This document shows positions 54,775 to 62,034 of a stretch of 64,000 bases of DNA, piece by piece. This DNA is from an uncultured Alphaproteobacteria bacterium. Its GTDB lineage: Bacteria; Pseudomonadota; Alphaproteobacteria; Rs-D84. Below the pieces are notes generated by a model. It did no database searches, had not been told where the DNA came from, and saw only the letters and a list, made by a program, of their open reading frames with translations. Numbering within the stretch: the stretch's first letter is position 1; the number at the start of each line of letters is the position of its first letter. A program made the position numbers and the translations under genes. Where the stretch lies: contig CALXXY010000003.1 in the NCBI GenBank assembly GCA_944392815.1, positions 32,001 through 96,000 of the forward strand, given 5' to 3'.

Positions 54775-57171
54775 TTATTTCTTTACAACAAAATTCACCA
54801 TTTTATTTGGCACAACGATGGTTTTGATTATTTCAGCATCGCCCAAACGTCGTGCGGCCACATCACGCGCGGCGGCAACAATTTCAGATTCCGGCGCGTC
54901 AACACCAATCTGAAAATCGCCCGCGCGTTTACCGTTAACCGACGCGACAATGGTCATTGTCGTTTTAACCAATTTGGCCGCGTCATACGTTGGCCACGGT
55001 TGAAACACCAACATATCCGCGTGCCCCAAACGTTCCCAGATTTCTTCTGTCAAATGTGGCGCAAACGGATTTAACATTTGAATCAACACTTCGTACGCAG
55101 CGCGCGGCATACCACCATCAAATTGATTGATAAATTCCATCATTGCAGAAATCGCGGTATTAAAACGCATATTTTCCAAACGTTCGGTCATATCAGCAAT
55201 TAATTGATTAACCAAACGTTCCTGTTCGGGCGTCATAACATCGTCTGTCAGTTTGTCCGCCATATTTTCCACACGTTTCAGGAATCTTTGCACCCCGGCC
55301 AGCGCACCGTCCGACCAGTTCACATTCGTATCCCACGGTCCCAGCGACAACACAGTCGTACGCGCGGCATCGGCACCAACACGCGCCACCATTTCATCAA
55401 CCTGGAATCCATTGCCGGCGGATTTAGACATTTTTTTACCGTCCGACCCCATCAGCAATCCGTTCGTGGTACGTTTTTTATACGGCTCGACAGTGTTTAC
55501 AAAACCCAAATCATACAACGCTTTGTGCCAAAAACGCGAATAAATCAAATGACGCGTATTGTGTTCATTGCCGCCATTATAATGATTTACCGGCATCCAG
55601 CGTTCCATTTGTTCCCGCGAACAAAATTCTTTGTCATTACGCGGATCCAGATACCGCATATAATACCACGACGAACCCGCCCACTGCGGCATAGTATCCG
55701 TTTCGCGTCGCGCCGGCGCGCCACATTTCGGACACATGGTATTCACCCAATCAGTCGCGCGGGCCAGGGGACTTTCGCCGTCCTCGGTCGGACGGTAATT
55801 TTCCATATACGGCTGCATTAACGGCAATTCAGATTCAGGCACCGGCACCCAACCGCATTTTTCACAATAGACCAATGGGATTGGCTCGCCCCAATACATC
55901 TGGCGCGAAAAACCCCAATCAGTCATTTTGAAACGTGTTTTCGGGCGGGCAAAGCCGTGTTCCTCGCCATACTTAATCGCGGCGGCGATTGCATCGGCCT
56001 TGTTCATGCCATTTAAAAATCCTGAATTAATATGCGCGCCGTCACCGGTCCAAACCTTGTCGGATTCGCCACCATCAATCACAGGAATAATTTTCAAACC
56101 GAATTTTTTCGCAAAATCCCAGTCGCGTTCATCGTGCGCCGGAACAGCCATAATAGTACCATGCGCATAATTCACCAATACATAGTCCGCCACAAACACG
56201 GGGATTTCATCGCCTGTAAATGGATTGCGCGCCATTATGCCGTCCAAACGCACACCTGTTTTTTCTTTTGTTGCGTCCGTCCGATCAAATTCGGATTTTT
56301 CGGCCGATTGTTTTATATACGCACGCACCGCGTCCGCGTTTTTAATGCGCCCGTCAGCCAGCCATTTGGCAACCAATTTGTGTTCCGGCGCAATCGCACA
56401 GAATGTCGCACCGAATATAGTATCAACACGTGTGGTGTAAACGGTCATTACATCGTCACCGACCATAAAATCAACGTCCGCACCAGTGGATTTACCAATC
56501 CAGTTTATCTGATCGCGCTTTACACGTTCCGGATAATCAACCAATTTCAAATCATCCAACAAACGCTGGGCATATTTAGTAATCGCCAGATTCCACTGCA
56601 TTTTTTCACGAATTTCGACTGGTCCATGACAACGATTGCATTTGCCATCTTCCAATTCTTCGTTGGTCAACGTGGTGCGGCAATTCGGACACCAGTTCAT
56701 CGGCAACATGGACTTGTACGCCAAACCTGCATTGAAAAATTGAATAAACATCCACTGGGTCCATTTGATATATTCAGGATCCGACGTCGCAATTTGCGAT
56801 TTCAAATCAATCGACCAACCCATTTCCACCATATTGGCAGTAAACTTTTGCACCAGGTCACGAACAACCTCGGACGGGTGTTTGCCAATTTTCGTGGCAT
56901 AGTTTTCCGCCGAAATCCCCAATGAATCAAAGCCCAACGGATATAAAACATCATAACCCTGCATACGACGAAAACGCGCCATAACGTCACACCCGGTGTA
57001 ATTCAACATATGTCCGCCATGCAATCCAGTGCCCGATGGAAAAGGAAATTCCGCCAACATATAAAACGGTGTCTTGCTGCCATCATTTTTAGGGGTAAAA
57101 ACACCGGCGTCCGCCCAACGGCGTTGCCATTTTTCTTCGCGTTCATGAATTTTTTTAATATCGTCTGCCAT
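54775..57171 (-). CDS. leuS: Leucine--tRNA ligase
   Basis: FPFPSGTGLHGGH, NWIGKS, YTTRVDT editing domain, AVPAHDERD, KMSKS, LNPFAPH. Confidence 0.97.
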   Translation of the reverse strand: MADDIKKIHEREEKWQRRWADAGVFTPKNDGSKTPFYMLAEFPFPSGTGLHGGHMLNYTGCDVMARFRRMQGYDVLYPLGFDSLGISAENYATKIGKHPSEVVRDLVQKFTANMVEMGWSIDLKSQIATSDPEYIKWTQWMFIQFFNAGLAYKSMLPMNWCPNCRTTLTNEELEDGKCNRCHGPVEIREKMQWNLAITKYAQRLLDDLKLVDYPERVKRDQINWIGKSTGADVDFMVGDDVMTVYTTRVDTIFGATFCAIAPEHKLVAKWLADGRIKNADAVRAYIKQSAEKSEFDRTDATKEKTGVRLDGIMARNPFTGDEIPVFVADYVLVNYAHGTIMAVPAHDERDWDFAKKFGLKIIPVIDGGESDKVWTGDGAHINSGFLNGMNKADAIAAAIKYGEEHGFARPKTRFKMTDWGFSRQMYWGEPIPLVYCEKCGWVPVPESELPLMQPYMENYRPTEDGESPLARATDWVNTMCPKCGAPARRETDTMPQWAGSSWYYMRYLDPRNDKEFCSREQMERWMPVNHYNGGNEHNTRHLIYSRFWHKALYDLGFVNTVEPYKKRTTNGLLMGSDGKKMSKSAGNGFQVDEMVARVGADAARTTVLSLGPWDTNVNWSDGALAGVQRFLKRVENMADKLTDDVMTPEQERLVNQLIADMTERLENMRFNTAISAMMEFINQFDGGMPRAAYEVLIQMLNPFAPHLTEEIWERLGHADMLVFQPWPTYDAAKLVKTTMTIVASVNGKRAGDFQIGVDAPESEIVAAARDVAARRLGDAEIIKTIVVPNKMVNFVVKK

Positions 57172-57236
57172 TTTTATAACCTGTTGTTAAATTCTGGAAA
57201 AATTTTATACATAAAATATGCTGGATTCAAGGAGTT

Positions 57237-57953
57237 TTATTGCGCCACCCGGCGCAAAAGTGCCAAATATTCCACATTGCCACTGCCGCCGCGAATGGGC
57301 GATTCAATAATACCAGATTGTTTATAGCCATTTTTTTCAAAGTTTTGTACAACGTTTTGAATGGCCGCGGCACGTTCAGATTCACTTTTAATCACACCAT
57401 GCGCACGGGCGGCAACATTGCGGGAAACCTCGAACTGGGGCTTAATCAGGGCGATAATTTGCGGCGCATTCCATGCGACCAGCGCATCGCTGATGTTGGT
57501 TAATGAAATAAACGACACATCAACCACAATCAAATCAACCGACCGCATGGGGGACAACGACCGAATATCCGTCTGTTCCAGCGCGGTCACACGCGCATCA
57601 TTTTTTAACGAATCCACCAATTGATTTGTGCCGACATCAACCGCAATCACATGCGCCGCCCCGCGCGATAACAGCGTTTCTGTAAAACCACCAGTACTGG
57701 CACCAACATCCAAACAAACATACCCCGCGGGATTCACCCCAAACGCGTCCAGCGCAGCCCCCAATTTCAAACTGCCGCGCCCAGTGGAATAGGGCAGCGC
57801 CCCGCCAACAATCACATCTGTGTCGGCAACGTCCATACTCGGCTTTTGCGCACGCGCCCCATTCACAGTCACCAGACCCGATTTAATCGCCGCCGCCGCG
57901 CGCGCCCGCGTGGAATACAGATTTCGTGAAACCAGTGCGATATCTAATCTCAT
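57237..57953 (-). CDS. tlyA: TlyA-family rRNA 2'-O-methyltransferase
   Basis: RLD S4 domain, LDVGASTGGFT, AVDVG..QL, DVSFISL, LIKPQFE, GNVEY. Confidence 0.93.
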   Translation of the reverse strand: MRLDIALVSRNLYSTRARAAAAIKSGLVTVNGARAQKPSMDVADTDVIVGGALPYSTGRGSLKLGAALDAFGVNPAGYVCLDVGASTGGFTETLLSRGAAHVIAVDVGTNQLVDSLKNDARVTALEQTDIRSLSPMRSVDLIVVDVSFISLTNISDALVAWNAPQIIALIKPQFEVSRNVAARAHGVIKSESERAAAIQNVVQNFEKNGYKQSGIIESPIRGGSGNVEYLALLRRVAQ

Positions 57954-57997
57954 ACCGAAAATTGTACCGCAGCATTCACGTAAAATCAAATAAGTCC

Positions 57998-58026
57998 TTG
58001 CACCACCCGCGCACACGCGATAATAT
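57998..58026 (+). promoter_or_regulatory. Putative promoter of the C4-like RNA / Cys-rich gene pair
   Basis: TTGCAC-N17-TAATAT, divergent from the tlyA promoter. Confidence 0.55.
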
Positions 58027-58115
58027 AACAAATGTCGGTGGGTGTTCCACCGATGGGGTGTCGAAACCCGTTAAACTAGCGTCAGGCAACTGATGAATTA
58101 AACTCCGATCTAGCA

Positions 58116-58187
58116 TGGTTGGAGGGCTTGCGAATATATTGAATAAGCAGCACTATTCTAGTTTATAGTTTCGAACCTCCAACCACC
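58116..58187 (+). ncRNA. C4 antisense RNA-like element
   Basis: Closing stem TGGTTGGAGG/CCTCCAACCA; internal CTAGTTT and GTTTCGA are exact reverse complements of upstream AAACTAG (58073-79) and TCGAAAC (58061-67); layout resembles phage C4 RNAs. Confidence 0.65.
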
Positions 58188-58245
58188 TGAATTTTTCTGG
58201 TGGTTTTTTCATTATCAAAACAAATGAAACAAGGGAGGTTGCATA

Positions 58246-58689
58246 ATGAAAAAACATTTAATACTGGTCGGGGTGTTTTCCGTGGCCATAGTCCAATCAC
58301 AACCCGCGATGGCCGTGACGAAGTGCGTGGCGTTAAACAGCCGCAGTACAACGTGTGCATATGCAAGTTCAGAATTCGATGTTACTGATTGGACAACAAC
58401 ATGCACTACAAACGATGTAAGTATTCCGATAAAAGGCATAGGGATATGTGCTAATGCAAGTGCTAGCGCCCTAGGAACAACAACAACACAACTAGACCTG
58501 TCGTCCACTGCTGATGATAACAAATATTGTTGGTGCCGTATGATAAGTCCTGCTGTGTCGCGCTGGGTGTATGTCAACTCAACCCCGACAGCGGGCGATT
58601 GTCACCATAGGTGCGCATCATACTGCGCGACGAATGTTCGTGATACACCGCTCTTTCGGCGTGGAATGTTCGGCTCGCTTTCTGACTAA
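58246..58689 (+). CDS. Secreted Cys-rich protein, gene A
   Basis: GGAGG RBS; signal peptide ending AMA; 9 Cys in mature part incl. YCWCRM and CxxxCxxxC. Confidence 0.85.
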   Translation: MKKHLILVGVFSVAIVQSQPAMAVTKCVALNSRSTTCAYASSEFDVTDWTTTCTTNDVSIPIKGIGICANASASALGTTTTQLDLSSTADDNKYCWCRMISPAVSRWVYVNSTPTAGDCHHRCASYCATNVRDTPLFRRGMFGSLSD

Positions 58690-58701
58690 TGGGGGCGCAC
58701 A

Positions 58702-59028
58702 ATGAAAAGAATACTGATTTTATTTGCATTATGTTGTCCGGTATCTGCGATGGCCCTGGATATAGAAGGTGGAGTAGTCGTTGGTCCGCCAGTGCAGGCA
58801 ATAAGCACCCCATCAACTTCATGCCCGTCGGGTTATACTGCGGTGGTCGAGGAACATATGGATATTGCGAACAGTTCATGCCCATCGGGCTATACGTCCG
58901 CCGGCACAGCAACCAGTTGTATCGCGTCCAACCCCGGCGGGTCGTGTATTATGTACGCCCCGGTGGGTGTATCGTATACAGACACCACCGGCATATATGA
59001 ATTCGAACAACCCTGCGCAATGGAATAA
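58702..59028 (+). CDS. Secreted Cys-rich protein, gene B
   Basis: GGGGG RBS; signal peptide ending AMA; two SCPSGY repeats; paralogous fragment at 15987-16127. Confidence 0.85.
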   Translation: MKRILILFALCCPVSAMALDIEGGVVVGPPVQAISTPSTSCPSGYTAVVEEHMDIANSSCPSGYTSAGTATSCIASNPGGSCIMYAPVGVSYTDTTGIYEFEQPCAME

Positions 59029-59371
59029 ACCACCCCGGCACTTCGTGCCACCCCTCCGCAGAGGGGAACTTTGCCCCGCAACGGTACGTAGCTAGTTCCC
59101 CTCTGCGGAGGGGTGGCGCGCTTTGCGCGACGGGGTGGTTTACTCGTGACTCGTGAGTGTGTCGCTCGGGCGCGTTGCGCCCTGTGCGTATCCTCGTATT
59201 TATTCGGTCTGCACTTCGTTTGACCTCATATACTCGGATTCATCGCGAGCAAAGCGTGGCGATCCAGTAAATAAAAAGCACTGCGGGCGAATGCTCGCAG
59301 ACATATTGCACTGGATTGCCACAGTCGTACGACAACGTTTTCAACGTTGATCGTACTCCTTCGCAATGACA
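59029..59371. repeat. Mosaic palindromic repeat, locus 3 (full module Y plus module Z)
   Basis: ACCACCCCG..GCCACCCCTCCGCAGAGGGGAACT inverted pair 59029-59140; TCATCGCGAG..GTGGCGATCCAGT...ACTGGATTGCCAC..TCGCAATGA 59240-59370. Confidence 0.92.
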
Positions 59372-60107
59372 GGGGGATAGTATGCCCGAATAACGTGTCG
59401 CACCCGAACGCCATCCGCCCCATTTTGACATATTTTTTTATTCAAAAATTACTTTAATTTATACATATATCTATATATTTTTAGTAAATTTTTAAATTTT
59501 ATACAATAATACACCATTTTAACATCAAAAATACACCAAAAATCGCTGAAAACCCGCAGAAATCCGCCATTTTTTGCATTTTTACGGTCAGAATAGGGCA
59601 CAAAAACCGATTTTTCCGCCCCCGACAATGACAAAAAACGGCCACACAGGCAACCAAAACCACAGAAACACATAAAAACACATTATATCACTAAATACAA
59701 AGTGTTATTTTATTTTTACAATAAATATCTTCAATAAATTTCACCAATAAATATGCGTAAAAACATTCACAAAAAAAATCCGAAACACGCCCGATACAAA
59801 AACACGCCGCACAAAACTGCACGAAACAAAAAAATCACCAAGTCAAAAACTAAACCCAAAATTCATCGTGCTATGACGCAGATGAATTTTATTTAACGTA
59901 CATTTATATGTTCATCTGCGCCACAGCGAACAAAAAATAATACCGACGACAGCGACAACACACATCACAGCAAATTTTTATCACGCGCGACTACACACAC
60001 ATTTTCACAAATTATAATATTTGACACGTCCGACACACAAAACCACAAAACAAATCTGCTTGTATTCATGTATCATTTTGGAACACACCAACACATCATA
60101 TTCTCGT

Positions 60108-60320
60108 TATATTACGTACAGTTTTTATGAGCCCCGGCGACCACATAATCCTCATATATTATGTATAGTTTTGGGGGCGCCAGCACTCCACATTCCTGTT
60201 ATATTATGTATAGTTTTATGAGCCCCAGCGGGCACATAATCCTCATATATTATGTATAGTTTTGGGAGCGCCAGCACTCCACATTCCCATTATATTATGT
60301 ATAGTTTTATGAGCCCCGGC
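60108..60320 (+). repeat. Tandem array (91-bp unit) carrying five copies of the dif XerD-side half-site TATATTATGTATAGTTTT
   Basis: Copies at 60108 (2 mismatches), 60155, 60200, 60246 and 60291; spacers alternate between two types. Confidence 0.9.
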
Positions 60321-60327
60321 GAATAAA

Positions 60328-60355
60328 ACTATACATAATATACATTATGCGCCTT
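60328..60355 (-). other. dif-like XerC/XerD recombination site
   Basis: AAGGCGCATAA-TGTATA-TTATGTATAGT versus E. coli dif GGTGCGCATAA-TGTATA-TTATGTTAAAT: 22/28 identical, 20 contiguous. Confidence 0.8.
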
Positions 60356-60781
60356 TTGGCATGGTTTACAAATCGGTGTCCCCTGGGGCGAAAAACTGGC
60401 CGAAATTTCGTCCTGACACACAACAAAACGGCAACAAAAAAATACGGTACAAAAATGAATATAAATATAAACATCACTGTGGCGCGAACAATAATAAATC
60501 ACACGACAAACACAAAATCATCGCGCAAACGTCGCCACATCGACAAACTTTTTATAATTTGCACGATATTTGCCGTATACCTGACAGCCATCATTTTTAT
60601 CATCACGACATAATATGAAACAACGAAAATACGCCCCGGTCCAACAAAACCGCCCTGTTCCGCCGTCCACCCCACCAATTACCACACGACGCCAAAACGA
60701 AACACGCCCCGGCGGCGGCGCGCAAAAAAAACACAAAAAACGGCGGAAATTCGCCGTTTTTTACACATTTCACCACACAAA

Positions 60782-61354
60782 TCACCGTGATTTGCGGCCG
60801 CCATGGGCCACTTTCGTGATTTTTGTAATTTTATCCCTGGCAACCCGGGTCACAGTTTTAATCCCCTTTTCTAAATCACTGGGTTGGGCAGGTATAATTT
60901 GCTCGGCCTGTAATTTCGAACAGCAATTTGGGCATTTTGTCGCCTGGATATTTATAGTAGATTTACAATACGGGCACGTCCGCGTCGTCACGGCCTTTTT
61001 CGCACGCAATTTGTTCATCACGCGCACCATTAAAAACACCGCAAACATAGTAATCAGAAAACTGACCACAGTATTCAAAAACACACCTATATTCATAGTG
61101 GCGGCCCCGGCGGCCTGGGCTTCGGCCACAGTGTTATAGTGCGCACCCGGCGCCCCACCCGACAGAACGATAAAAAATTGCGAAAAATCAATATCCCCGA
61201 TCAGCATACCGATTGGTGGCATAATAACATCTTTGACCAGCGAATTAACCATAGTCGTCATGACACTGCCGACGATGATACCAACGGCCATATCAATCGC
61301 GCTGCCACGTTCCAAAAACGTTCTGAATTCGGACAACAATTTATTTTTAGCCAT
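60782..61354 (-). CDS. mscL: Large-conductance mechanosensitive channel with C-terminal zinc ribbon
   Basis: EFRTFLERGSAIDMAVGIIVG, VNSLVKDVIMPPIG, N.G.FLN.VV.FLI; CPYC..CPNC; start could be 61372. Confidence 0.93.
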   Translation of the reverse strand: MAKNKLLSEFRTFLERGSAIDMAVGIIVGSVMTTMVNSLVKDVIMPPIGMLIGDIDFSQFFIVLSGGAPGAHYNTVAEAQAAGAATMNIGVFLNTVVSFLITMFAVFLMVRVMNKLRAKKAVTTRTCPYCKSTINIQATKCPNCCSKLQAEQIIPAQPSDLEKGIKTVTRVARDKITKITKVAHGGRKSR

Positions 61355-61910
61355 TTTTTTCACCTTTGCCATTATTCAAATAATCTTTTAATTCAGCGAC
61401 CACCTTGTTCAGTGTTTTCCGCAAACTTTCATCGCGCGTTTCCACGGTAATATCAGCGGTTGCATAAATATCATATCGTTCATCAATCAATTGCGCCAAA
61501 ATTTTCCGACTGTCCGTGTGCAGCAACTGCGGCCGCGTATGCCGAAACCCAGTTCGTTTTACCAACAAATCCAAATCCGCCCGCAGCCACACAGACACCG
61601 CGCGTTCCAACACCATTTTTCGCACGGCCGGGGTTATAAATGCGCCCTCGCCTGTGGAAATAACCTTTAACGCCGGCGGCGTATCAAACAGCCGTTCAAT
61701 GACCCTCTGTTCAGCGCGACGAAATTCGGCCTCGCCATACATGGCGAAAATATCCACCACGCTGCAACCGGCTGCGGCCTCGATTTCTTTGTCTGAATCA
61801 ACGAACGGAATCCCCAGCCGTCGTGCCAACGCGCGCCCTACACTGGTTTTACCGGCCCCCATCAGCCCAACCATAACAATCGGCTTGTTCAGTTTTATAT
61901 TTTCTTTCAT
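61347..61910 (-). CDS. aroK: Shikimate kinase
   Basis: VGLMGAGKTSVGRALA, FVDSDKEIE, GEAEFR, RPQL. Confidence 0.93.
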   Translation of the reverse strand: MKENIKLNKPIVMVGLMGAGKTSVGRALARRLGIPFVDSDKEIEAAAGCSVVDIFAMYGEAEFRRAEQRVIERLFDTPPALKVISTGEGAFITPAVRKMVLERAVSVWLRADLDLLVKRTGFRHTRPQLLHTDSRKILAQLIDERYDIYATADITVETRDESLRKTLNKVVAELKDYLNNGKGEKNG

Positions 61911-62034
61911 ACCGCAAATTTTACTAAAAAATACGCCCATTCTCAACAAGAATTAAAAACGCTTTTTATTTTAAAATCACGAAAAATATGATATAATGCA
62001 AACATATCAATTACGTAGGGGACGAGAGAGCATC

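Follow-up and report, generated by a model that had tools for sequence, protein, structure and literature searches.

Inverted arrays of predicted XerD half-sites beside dif in Candidatus Enterousia and its relatives

[quoted passage not shown] What is new here is the combination of tandem, side- and orientation-locked XerD-only sites beside dif with genomes that have no recognisable SMC. The array described in most detail lies in a 64-kb window (that is, the whole stretch of DNA analysed, contig C3:32001-96000 of its own genome, G000), which belongs to a Candidatus Enterousia genome of 927 kb in 18 contigs (45% GC, 96.8% complete).

The dif site and the array facing it

The full dif site occupies positions 60328-60355 of the window on the minus strand, with the XerC arm at 60345-60355, the central region at 60339-60344 and the XerD arm at 60328-60338 (an 11-6-11 architecture). 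The first-pass annotation of this DNA had given 22 of its 28 positions as shared with E. coli dif, and an ungapped alignment to the chromosomal site of that species gives the same count, including a 20-nt identical core. It is the single 28/28 match in the whole 927-kb genome, the second-best 28-mer matching at 19/28, and the dif core was present in 24 of the 24 same-genus genomes sampled. Judged by its sequence, the 28-bp site is the genuine dimer resolution site of this genome, and XerC, XerD and a gamma-domain FtsK are predicted to act on it. One XerD-like and one XerC-like protein are encoded, each with its best NCBIfam score against the matching model; both fall under the NCBIfam equivalog cut-offs, and the XerD-like protein clears the threshold of subfamily model NF001399. 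Two phage-type integrases are encoded as well. In the single FtsK, the C-terminus resembles gamma domains of known structure, among them those of the KOPS complex 2VE8/2VE9 and the XerD-gamma fusion 5DCF (E about 1e-10).

The site is placed in non-coding DNA, between mscL and a gene-poor stretch. On the XerC side its neighbours are mscL (60782-61372, minus strand; Pfam MscL, 1.2e-32) and aroK, and mscL adjoins dif in 76 of at least 107 loci, a sample made up of 27 loci from genome searches and at least 80 from a contig scan (99 after removing identical ones). The XerD side of the window begins with 2.3 kb without Pfam matches, followed by a gene for a tlyA-like rRNA methyltransferase (57237-58031, minus strand; Pfam FtsJ, 4.6e-37, plus S4) and by leuS; a tlyA-like gene lies within 1.5 kb of dif in 26 of the at least 107 loci, and the stretch between the two varies among species from 0.4 to more than 2.3 kb. 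Within this stretch, two small cysteine-rich open frames with signal-peptide-like starts and no Pfam family (58246-58689 and 58702-59028, plus strand) run opposite to all their neighbours, and relatives of the former lie 449-621 bp from dif in three other loci. Nested GC-rich palindromes at 59030-59140 draw spurious Rfam matches to microRNAs on either strand; they probably form the terminator of these two small genes. In Logan contigs from three gut metagenome runs, the segment 59300-59420 is covered about 30-90 times as deeply as its flanks, many raw reads of a fourth run have loose ends there, and no tRNA was found in it; it looks like a short element common to many genomes. Elsewhere in the genome, a 989-aa open frame with HNH and RuvC-III/Cas9 RuvC domains (G000:C4:81138-84107) is likely a compact Cas9.

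Facing dif are five copies of an 18-mer on the plus strand, in opposite orientation and at the 45-47-bp spacing that had been noticed at first pass. Copy 1 (60108-60125), the most distal, is decaying and has two mismatches in the arm, and copies 2 (60155-60172), 3 (60200-60217), 4 (60246-60263) and 5 (60291-60308) are exact; start-to-start distances are 47, 45, 46 and 45 bp, and adjacent copies are 27-30 nt apart. Alignment to the E. coli site bears out the earlier description of the repeat as the XerD arm together with 4 central-region nucleotides, and extends it by TTT. Direct reading of the sequence likewise confirmed the CATAA pseudo-XerC arm upstream of copies 2 and 4, at a spacing of 10 nt, and its absence from the other copies. 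Tandem Repeats Finder (TRF) reports a period of 45 (4.7 copies) and one of 91 (2.4 copies, 90% matches, score 374), the latter being the higher-order unit already described; the two 91-bp units (60123-60213 and 60214-60304, plus strand) are 93% alike, and each consists of two 45-46-bp subunits in which two unrelated spacer types alternate. Copy 5 points the opposite way to dif, the two arms being 22 nt apart, and forms with a short GC-rich dyad and the XerD half of dif a long imperfect palindrome (60291-60342), whose 25-nt arms (60291-60315 and 60318-60342) are 92% complementary around a 2-nt loop. The array region folds more stably than shuffled sequences (z = -4.7), and the palindrome, as a stem of 20 pairs, dominates both the minimum-energy and the centroid folds. 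We predict that the five repeats are extra, XerD-only half-sites. Outside the array, the 18-mer (at most two mismatches) occurs once and the 12-nt arm (at most one mismatch) twice in the 927-kb genome.

A GC-rich imperfect dyad lies on the outer side of each half-site (60126-60154 and 60309-60324 in the window, with equivalents in relatives); its GCTGRCGC-like core recurs in a fixed orientation and is kept at some loci where the arm has decayed. These dyads fail as intrinsic terminators on either strand, since T precedes and A follows them. A known RNA was also considered and rejected, the Rfam scan of 57500-62000 returning sub-threshold chance matches only, and a tRNA scan of 57000-62000 found none. 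A promoter scan gave 10 promoter-like sites against 5.9 expected, two of them in array units and matching at 9/12 only.

That the array is an assembly artefact of a metagenome bin is a reading we give almost no weight. It could draw on the failure to find any short-read contig (Logan) that spans the whole array, contigs breaking inside it, and on several related dif loci that lie at contig ends. Against this, the array is 15 kb away from the contig end, its words occur in sequencing runs from other studies, and the same layout with other spacers appears in the interior of contigs in dozens of assemblies made independently. Since no short-read contig crosses the array, five is the copy number of this assembly and the exact count is provisional. 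A possible copy-number variant, a joint that skips 138 bp (about three units) in a single contig from another study's run, was set aside as too weak for a copy-number claim since only 23 nt lie on its shorter side.

Layout, constraint and turnover across relatives

We searched for the 15-nt half-site (at most two mismatches) within 600 bp of dif at the 99 loci, and the extra half-sites fell almost entirely into one class. The XerD side carries 103 inverted sites, spread over 49 of the 99 loci listed, and one direct site (one locus of the 99); the XerC side carries four direct sites, at four of the 99 loci, and no inverted site at any of them. Shuffled XerD flanks gave 1.65 sites, both orientations summed. 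The multiplication is also specific to the XerD half: an equivalent search for extra XerC halves returned 0, 0, 0 and 1 in the four side/orientation classes. With such XerD half-sites at 49 of the 99 loci, the relatives do not show what the first-pass annotation had named as evidence against its reading, a single dif with unconserved flanks. An exact pattern of arm, 8-38 nt and inverted arm was found in 47 of 299 family genomes (35 of the 205 high-quality ones) and in 4 of 18 genera, and the reversed pattern, used as a control on the same family genomes, had no match.

A half-site copy lies within 100 bp of dif at 42 of the 99 loci listed, and none was detected within 600 bp at 50. Counted as contiguous arrays, 57 of the 99 listed loci have no copy, 17 have one, 14 have two, five have three, three have four, two have five and one has seven, these counts being lower bounds because seven loci end at a contig edge within 400 bp. 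Copy number among related loci thus ranges from 0 to 7 or more, and it shifts between close relatives (e.g., five copies in this genome vs. at least four and at least seven in the two closest, both of which are cut by contig ends). A quick tree with several long branches was made from 1.1 kb of XerC-side flank at 92 loci, the other seven of the 99 having been dropped for short flanks (fast MAFFT plus FastTree). On this tree, presence of the array changes at least 19 times, 12 of these changes being forced by well-supported branches. Shuffling presence over the tree gave a mean of 30.3 changes, and none of 500 shuffles was as low as 19. Taken with the 50 of 99 loci that have no half-site, the at least 19 changes indicate that the array is dispensable and labile.

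The arms themselves are strongly conserved among spacers that have diverged. In a logo of the 86 unique half-site copies, arm positions reach about 2 bits, the spacers to either side stay below 0.5 bit, and no XerC arm is conserved. The arm signal is partly biased by detection (at most two mismatches in the 15-mer); an AAA that lies outside the 15-mer, and is free of that bias, is conserved as well. Inverted sites are not restricted to the immediate vicinity of dif: 11 of the 99 loci listed have one more than 300 bp away, and among 15 loci listed with distal half-sites (176-593 bp) the arm is kept amid unrelated contexts. A motif of about 25 nt at 59546-59575, GGCGGATTTCTGCGGG-rich on the minus strand, occurs in relatives about 60 nt before a distal XerD half-site.

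Spacing follows a few preferred values. Distances from dif to the first copy fall into two clusters, 21-24 nt and 30-34 nt, and this gap usually reads as an imperfect palindrome in which a GCTGRCGC-like core recurs in one orientation. The spacing between units clusters at 45-47 and 68-72 bp and shows no helical phasing, which argues against an ordered nucleoprotein filament.

Strand skew and KOPS-like words around dif

The lack of a skew switch at dif, noticed by eye in the first-pass annotation, holds well beyond the window. GC skew is negative on both flanks of dif in the window, and is also unswitched at dif over 40-100 kb on each side in three other species (G003, G013 and G002); GC and AT skews at third codon positions, computed per gene strand from crude gene calls, agree, and in none of the four genomes does dif sit at a GC-skew switch. 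The offset can be read most directly in G003, which is assembled in two contigs of 515 and 430 kb, the first (C1) G-rich almost throughout and the second (C2) C-rich. Its cumulative G-C maximum lies at C1:478 kb and its dif at 388.65 kb, i.e., about 89 kb apart, the maximum being on the XerD side, at a distance of roughly 9% of the chromosome. For proteobacterial chromosomes, the accessible text of PMC2731167 gives a median distance between dif and the skew switch of 7.3 kb and a third quartile of 21.4 kb. The third-codon-position skews of the G003 interval from dif to 475 kb group with the XerC-side replichore.

Candidate FtsK-orienting words of this lineage behave differently from the skew. 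Among the top 40 strand-skewed 8-mers of G003, only GGGCGGGG and GGGGCGGG reverse in the interval between dif and the skew maximum, and the polarity of these two flips at dif, at 20-kb-bin resolution, in all four genomes. An unbiased scan of 8490 8-mers over the four genomes ranked GGGCGGGG (p = 2.8e-9), GGGGCGGG (p = 3.3e-9) and GGGCAGGG (p = 2.4e-7) first for convergence on dif, and these three are our candidates. On the XerC side the KOPS-like family occurs 32 times forward and 6 times in reverse, and on the XerD side 5 and 42 times, respectively (Fisher p = 3e-12). Skew and KOPS-like polarity are therefore discordant over the XerD-side interval (positions 1-60100 of the window) in four species. 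We also observed that TGCGCTGG is the most abundant strongly strand-skewed 8-mer of G003 C1/C2 (103 leading, 16 lagging), and it is a candidate Chi-like word. The dnaA gene (G000:C2:70400-70852) lies within a 216-kb contig of uniform skew, away from any skew switch.

The discordance bears on several questions about the position of dif. The first-pass annotation had proposed a displaced or recently inverted site, and this proposal is not supported: skew and KOPS-like words would be flipped jointly by an inversion, yet the two disagree across the whole XerD-side interval, convergence of the words on dif is seen in 4 of 4 genomes, and the offset is common to all four and hence old. The reversal of KOPS-like polarity at dif instead identifies it as genuine, neither displaced nor inverted. 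Nor is the array the cause of the offset, because G003 has the same offset and no array. Finally, a replication-fork barrier to XerC-side forks was rejected, since outer faces that stopped such forks would switch the skew at dif, and the skew runs through dif even with five copies.

A possible role in the FtsK step and the competing readings

We suggest that XerD would bind the half-sites alone and that the array would act on the FtsK step of dimer resolution; we infer both the binding and every effect on FtsK by extrapolation from E. coli. In that organism, according to the available text of PMC2800217, XerD alone binds its dif half with a KD of about 10 nM, XerC alone binds poorly, and XerD on a dif half-site stops FtsK about fivefold better from its outer than from its inner face. 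In the accessible part of PMC2673442, FtsK activates recombination only if loaded on the XerD side, and nucleotides beside the XerD arm matter. A XerD monomer bound to a half-site that is on the XerD side and inverted would confront dif with its outer face and the chromosome arm with its inner one. Only one orientation occurs in numbers on either flank, and it is the one predicted to present inner faces to an FtsK bound for dif, and it is for this reason that we read the array as docking sites for XerD monomers on the approach of FtsK.

Under this hypothesis, FtsK would be guided along the XerD-side arm by KOPS-like words, and it is on this side, too, that replication appears to end. An FtsK bound for dif would meet weakly blocking inner faces only and could reach it, and a motor in the 21-34-bp bay beside dif, or one overrunning dif, would meet strongly blocking outer faces. 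The approach path would consequently be permissive inward and blocking outward, with XerD kept concentrated and FtsK confined to the bay. We regard it as probable that the half-sites are selected XerD-binding sites. A XerD-loading array with an effect on the FtsK step is our best explanation overall, although we put it at somewhat short of an even chance, and the specific effect of the half-sites on FtsK is a possibility that we advance with more hesitation still. The GC-rich dyad and the GCTGRCGC-like core beside each arm lie outside what the FtsK model explains. Of the earlier proposal of a XerD-loading array, the part that remains the best reading is the loading array itself, with XerD-only half-sites whose logo has no conserved XerC arm; its SMC-unloading variant is not supported. 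A close precedent is the E. coli XerD roadblock, where a XerD monomer on a half-site obeys an inner/outer-face logic that fits the orientation lock seen here; however, that roadblock is an engineered in vitro substrate, and the accessible text of PMC2800217 describes no natural dif-side array.

The main rival to the docking hypothesis is that the array is a by-product without function: a fold-back duplication at the small GC-rich dyad beside dif would have copied dif's XerD half, slippage would have amplified the copy, and copies would persist only in the orientation that does not halt FtsK ahead of dif. If this were so, the layout would reflect tolerance rather than use. The palindromic gap between dif and the first copy could simply record such an inverted duplication, and the differences in copy number between the closest relatives, the changes of presence on the tree, the loci that have no half-site and the decay of the most distal copy in the window all point the same way. 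However, a by-product would hardly leave near-invariant arms between spacers that have diverged beyond alignment, nor distal arms kept in unrelated contexts; the XerC half has not been comparably duplicated, and the copied segment stops at the same central-region position across lineages. Hence, we consider this explanation unlikely, if well worth keeping in view.

Less probable again, and in our view rather improbable, is control of recombination itself, whereby extra XerD would shape the synapse, bias which recombinase cuts first, or decoy Xer-integrating phages away from dif. The XerD-side flank is indeed the variable side, with small lineage-restricted genes, and an analogy exists in the plasmid sites cer and psi, whose accessory sequences lie on the XerC side of the core. 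At these sites about 200 bp of protein-binding DNA flanks the Xer core and modulates its use, yet, in the available text of PMC5357621, this DNA binds PepA, ArgR or ArcA and not XerD, it makes recombination FtsK-independent, and the recombining cer copies are in direct repeat. The repeated element of the Enterousia array, unlike those binding sites, is the XerD arm itself. The unphased spacing of the half-sites also argues against this reading, as does the absence of any sign of a Xer-integrating element: no second dif-like site was seen, and the dif core pattern had no match among 2.9 million viral contigs.

The first-pass annotation had also raised the possibility of scars left by serial integrations of IMEX, i.e., Xer-exploiting mobile elements, which we now judge to be highly improbable. 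In its favor are the variable length of the XerD-side flank among species and the two small secreted-protein genes on the opposite strand within it. However, such integration leaves direct, full sites, two-armed and flanking an element, whereas the copies here have the inverted orientation, no XerC arms and only 27-30 nt between them, and a second dif-like site of at least 19/28 is absent anywhere near. The arm palindrome did have five matches in viral contigs, but each of these is an AT-rich hairpin of unrelated sequence. Like the array, the folded attP of CTX phage and IMEX have inverted dif-like halves able to form a hairpin, but a hairpin of the Enterousia array would rebuild the XerD arm only, and no element is present. 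Similarly, the pdif modules of Acinetobacter plasmids have neighbouring Xer sites in inverted orientation, but these are full XerC/XerD sites that alternate around gene modules, in contrast to half-sites in one orientation with no genes between them.

Unloading of SMC-ScpAB at the terminus by sites like the XDS of Bacillus subtilis, the other form of the earlier proposal, is scarcely tenable for these genomes. The XDS of Karaboja and colleagues (2021) are reportedly dispersed single sites, not a dif-abutting tandem array of fixed side and orientation. The likeness is otherwise real: in both cases the XerD half is kept and no working XerC half accompanies it (here, in the logo of the 86 unique copies), the sites lie close to dif in the terminus region, and XerD at XDS is DNA-bound and not acting as a recombinase, according to the accessible portions of PMC11840125, PMC11894783 and PMC12322038, the first of which also describes, citing the 2021 work, an artificial XDS array that blocks Smc translocation in B. 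subtilis. However, XDS act on SMC-ScpAB, and no such complex was found in the Enterousia genome: profiles for the SMC hinge and for ScpA had no match in the 96.8%-complete genome, and ScpA was found in 0 of 5 relatives (94-97% complete). ScpA is the stronger negative of the two, because the hinge profile also missed a Caulobacter control. SMC_N matched only open frames of 237-606 aa, none of them SMC-sized, and the two above the cut-off correspond in length to RecF (378 aa) and RecN (570 aa). The 19 longest open frames (at least 989 aa), six of which have no Pfam family, include nothing SMC-, Muk- or Mks-like. These results remove the SMC-unloading reading.

Literature listings and abstracts, together with the accessible text of the Xer review PMC5357621, gave no account of naturally occurring arrays of XerD half-sites next to dif, the arrangement of XDS having been judged from papers that cite the original work. 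The combined proposition is a demanding one, namely that these are XerD-only sites with an SMC-independent function, in a family whose dif lies about 90 kb (roughly 9% of the chromosome) from the apparent end of replication, and in which FtsK-guiding and replication polarity would be uncoupled over all of that interval; we therefore offer it as a whole as doubtful. To our knowledge, XerD acting away from dif as a plain DNA-binding protein has so far been known only from SMC unloading in Bacillus. XerD-only sites of strict geometry in SMC-less, reduced-genome gut Alphaproteobacteria point to a second, SMC-independent use of XerD. Further, FtsK-guiding words and strand skew, which normally coincide, are separated by about 89 kb in these genomes, which makes these genomes well suited to the question of how dif is positioned where no fork trap exists.
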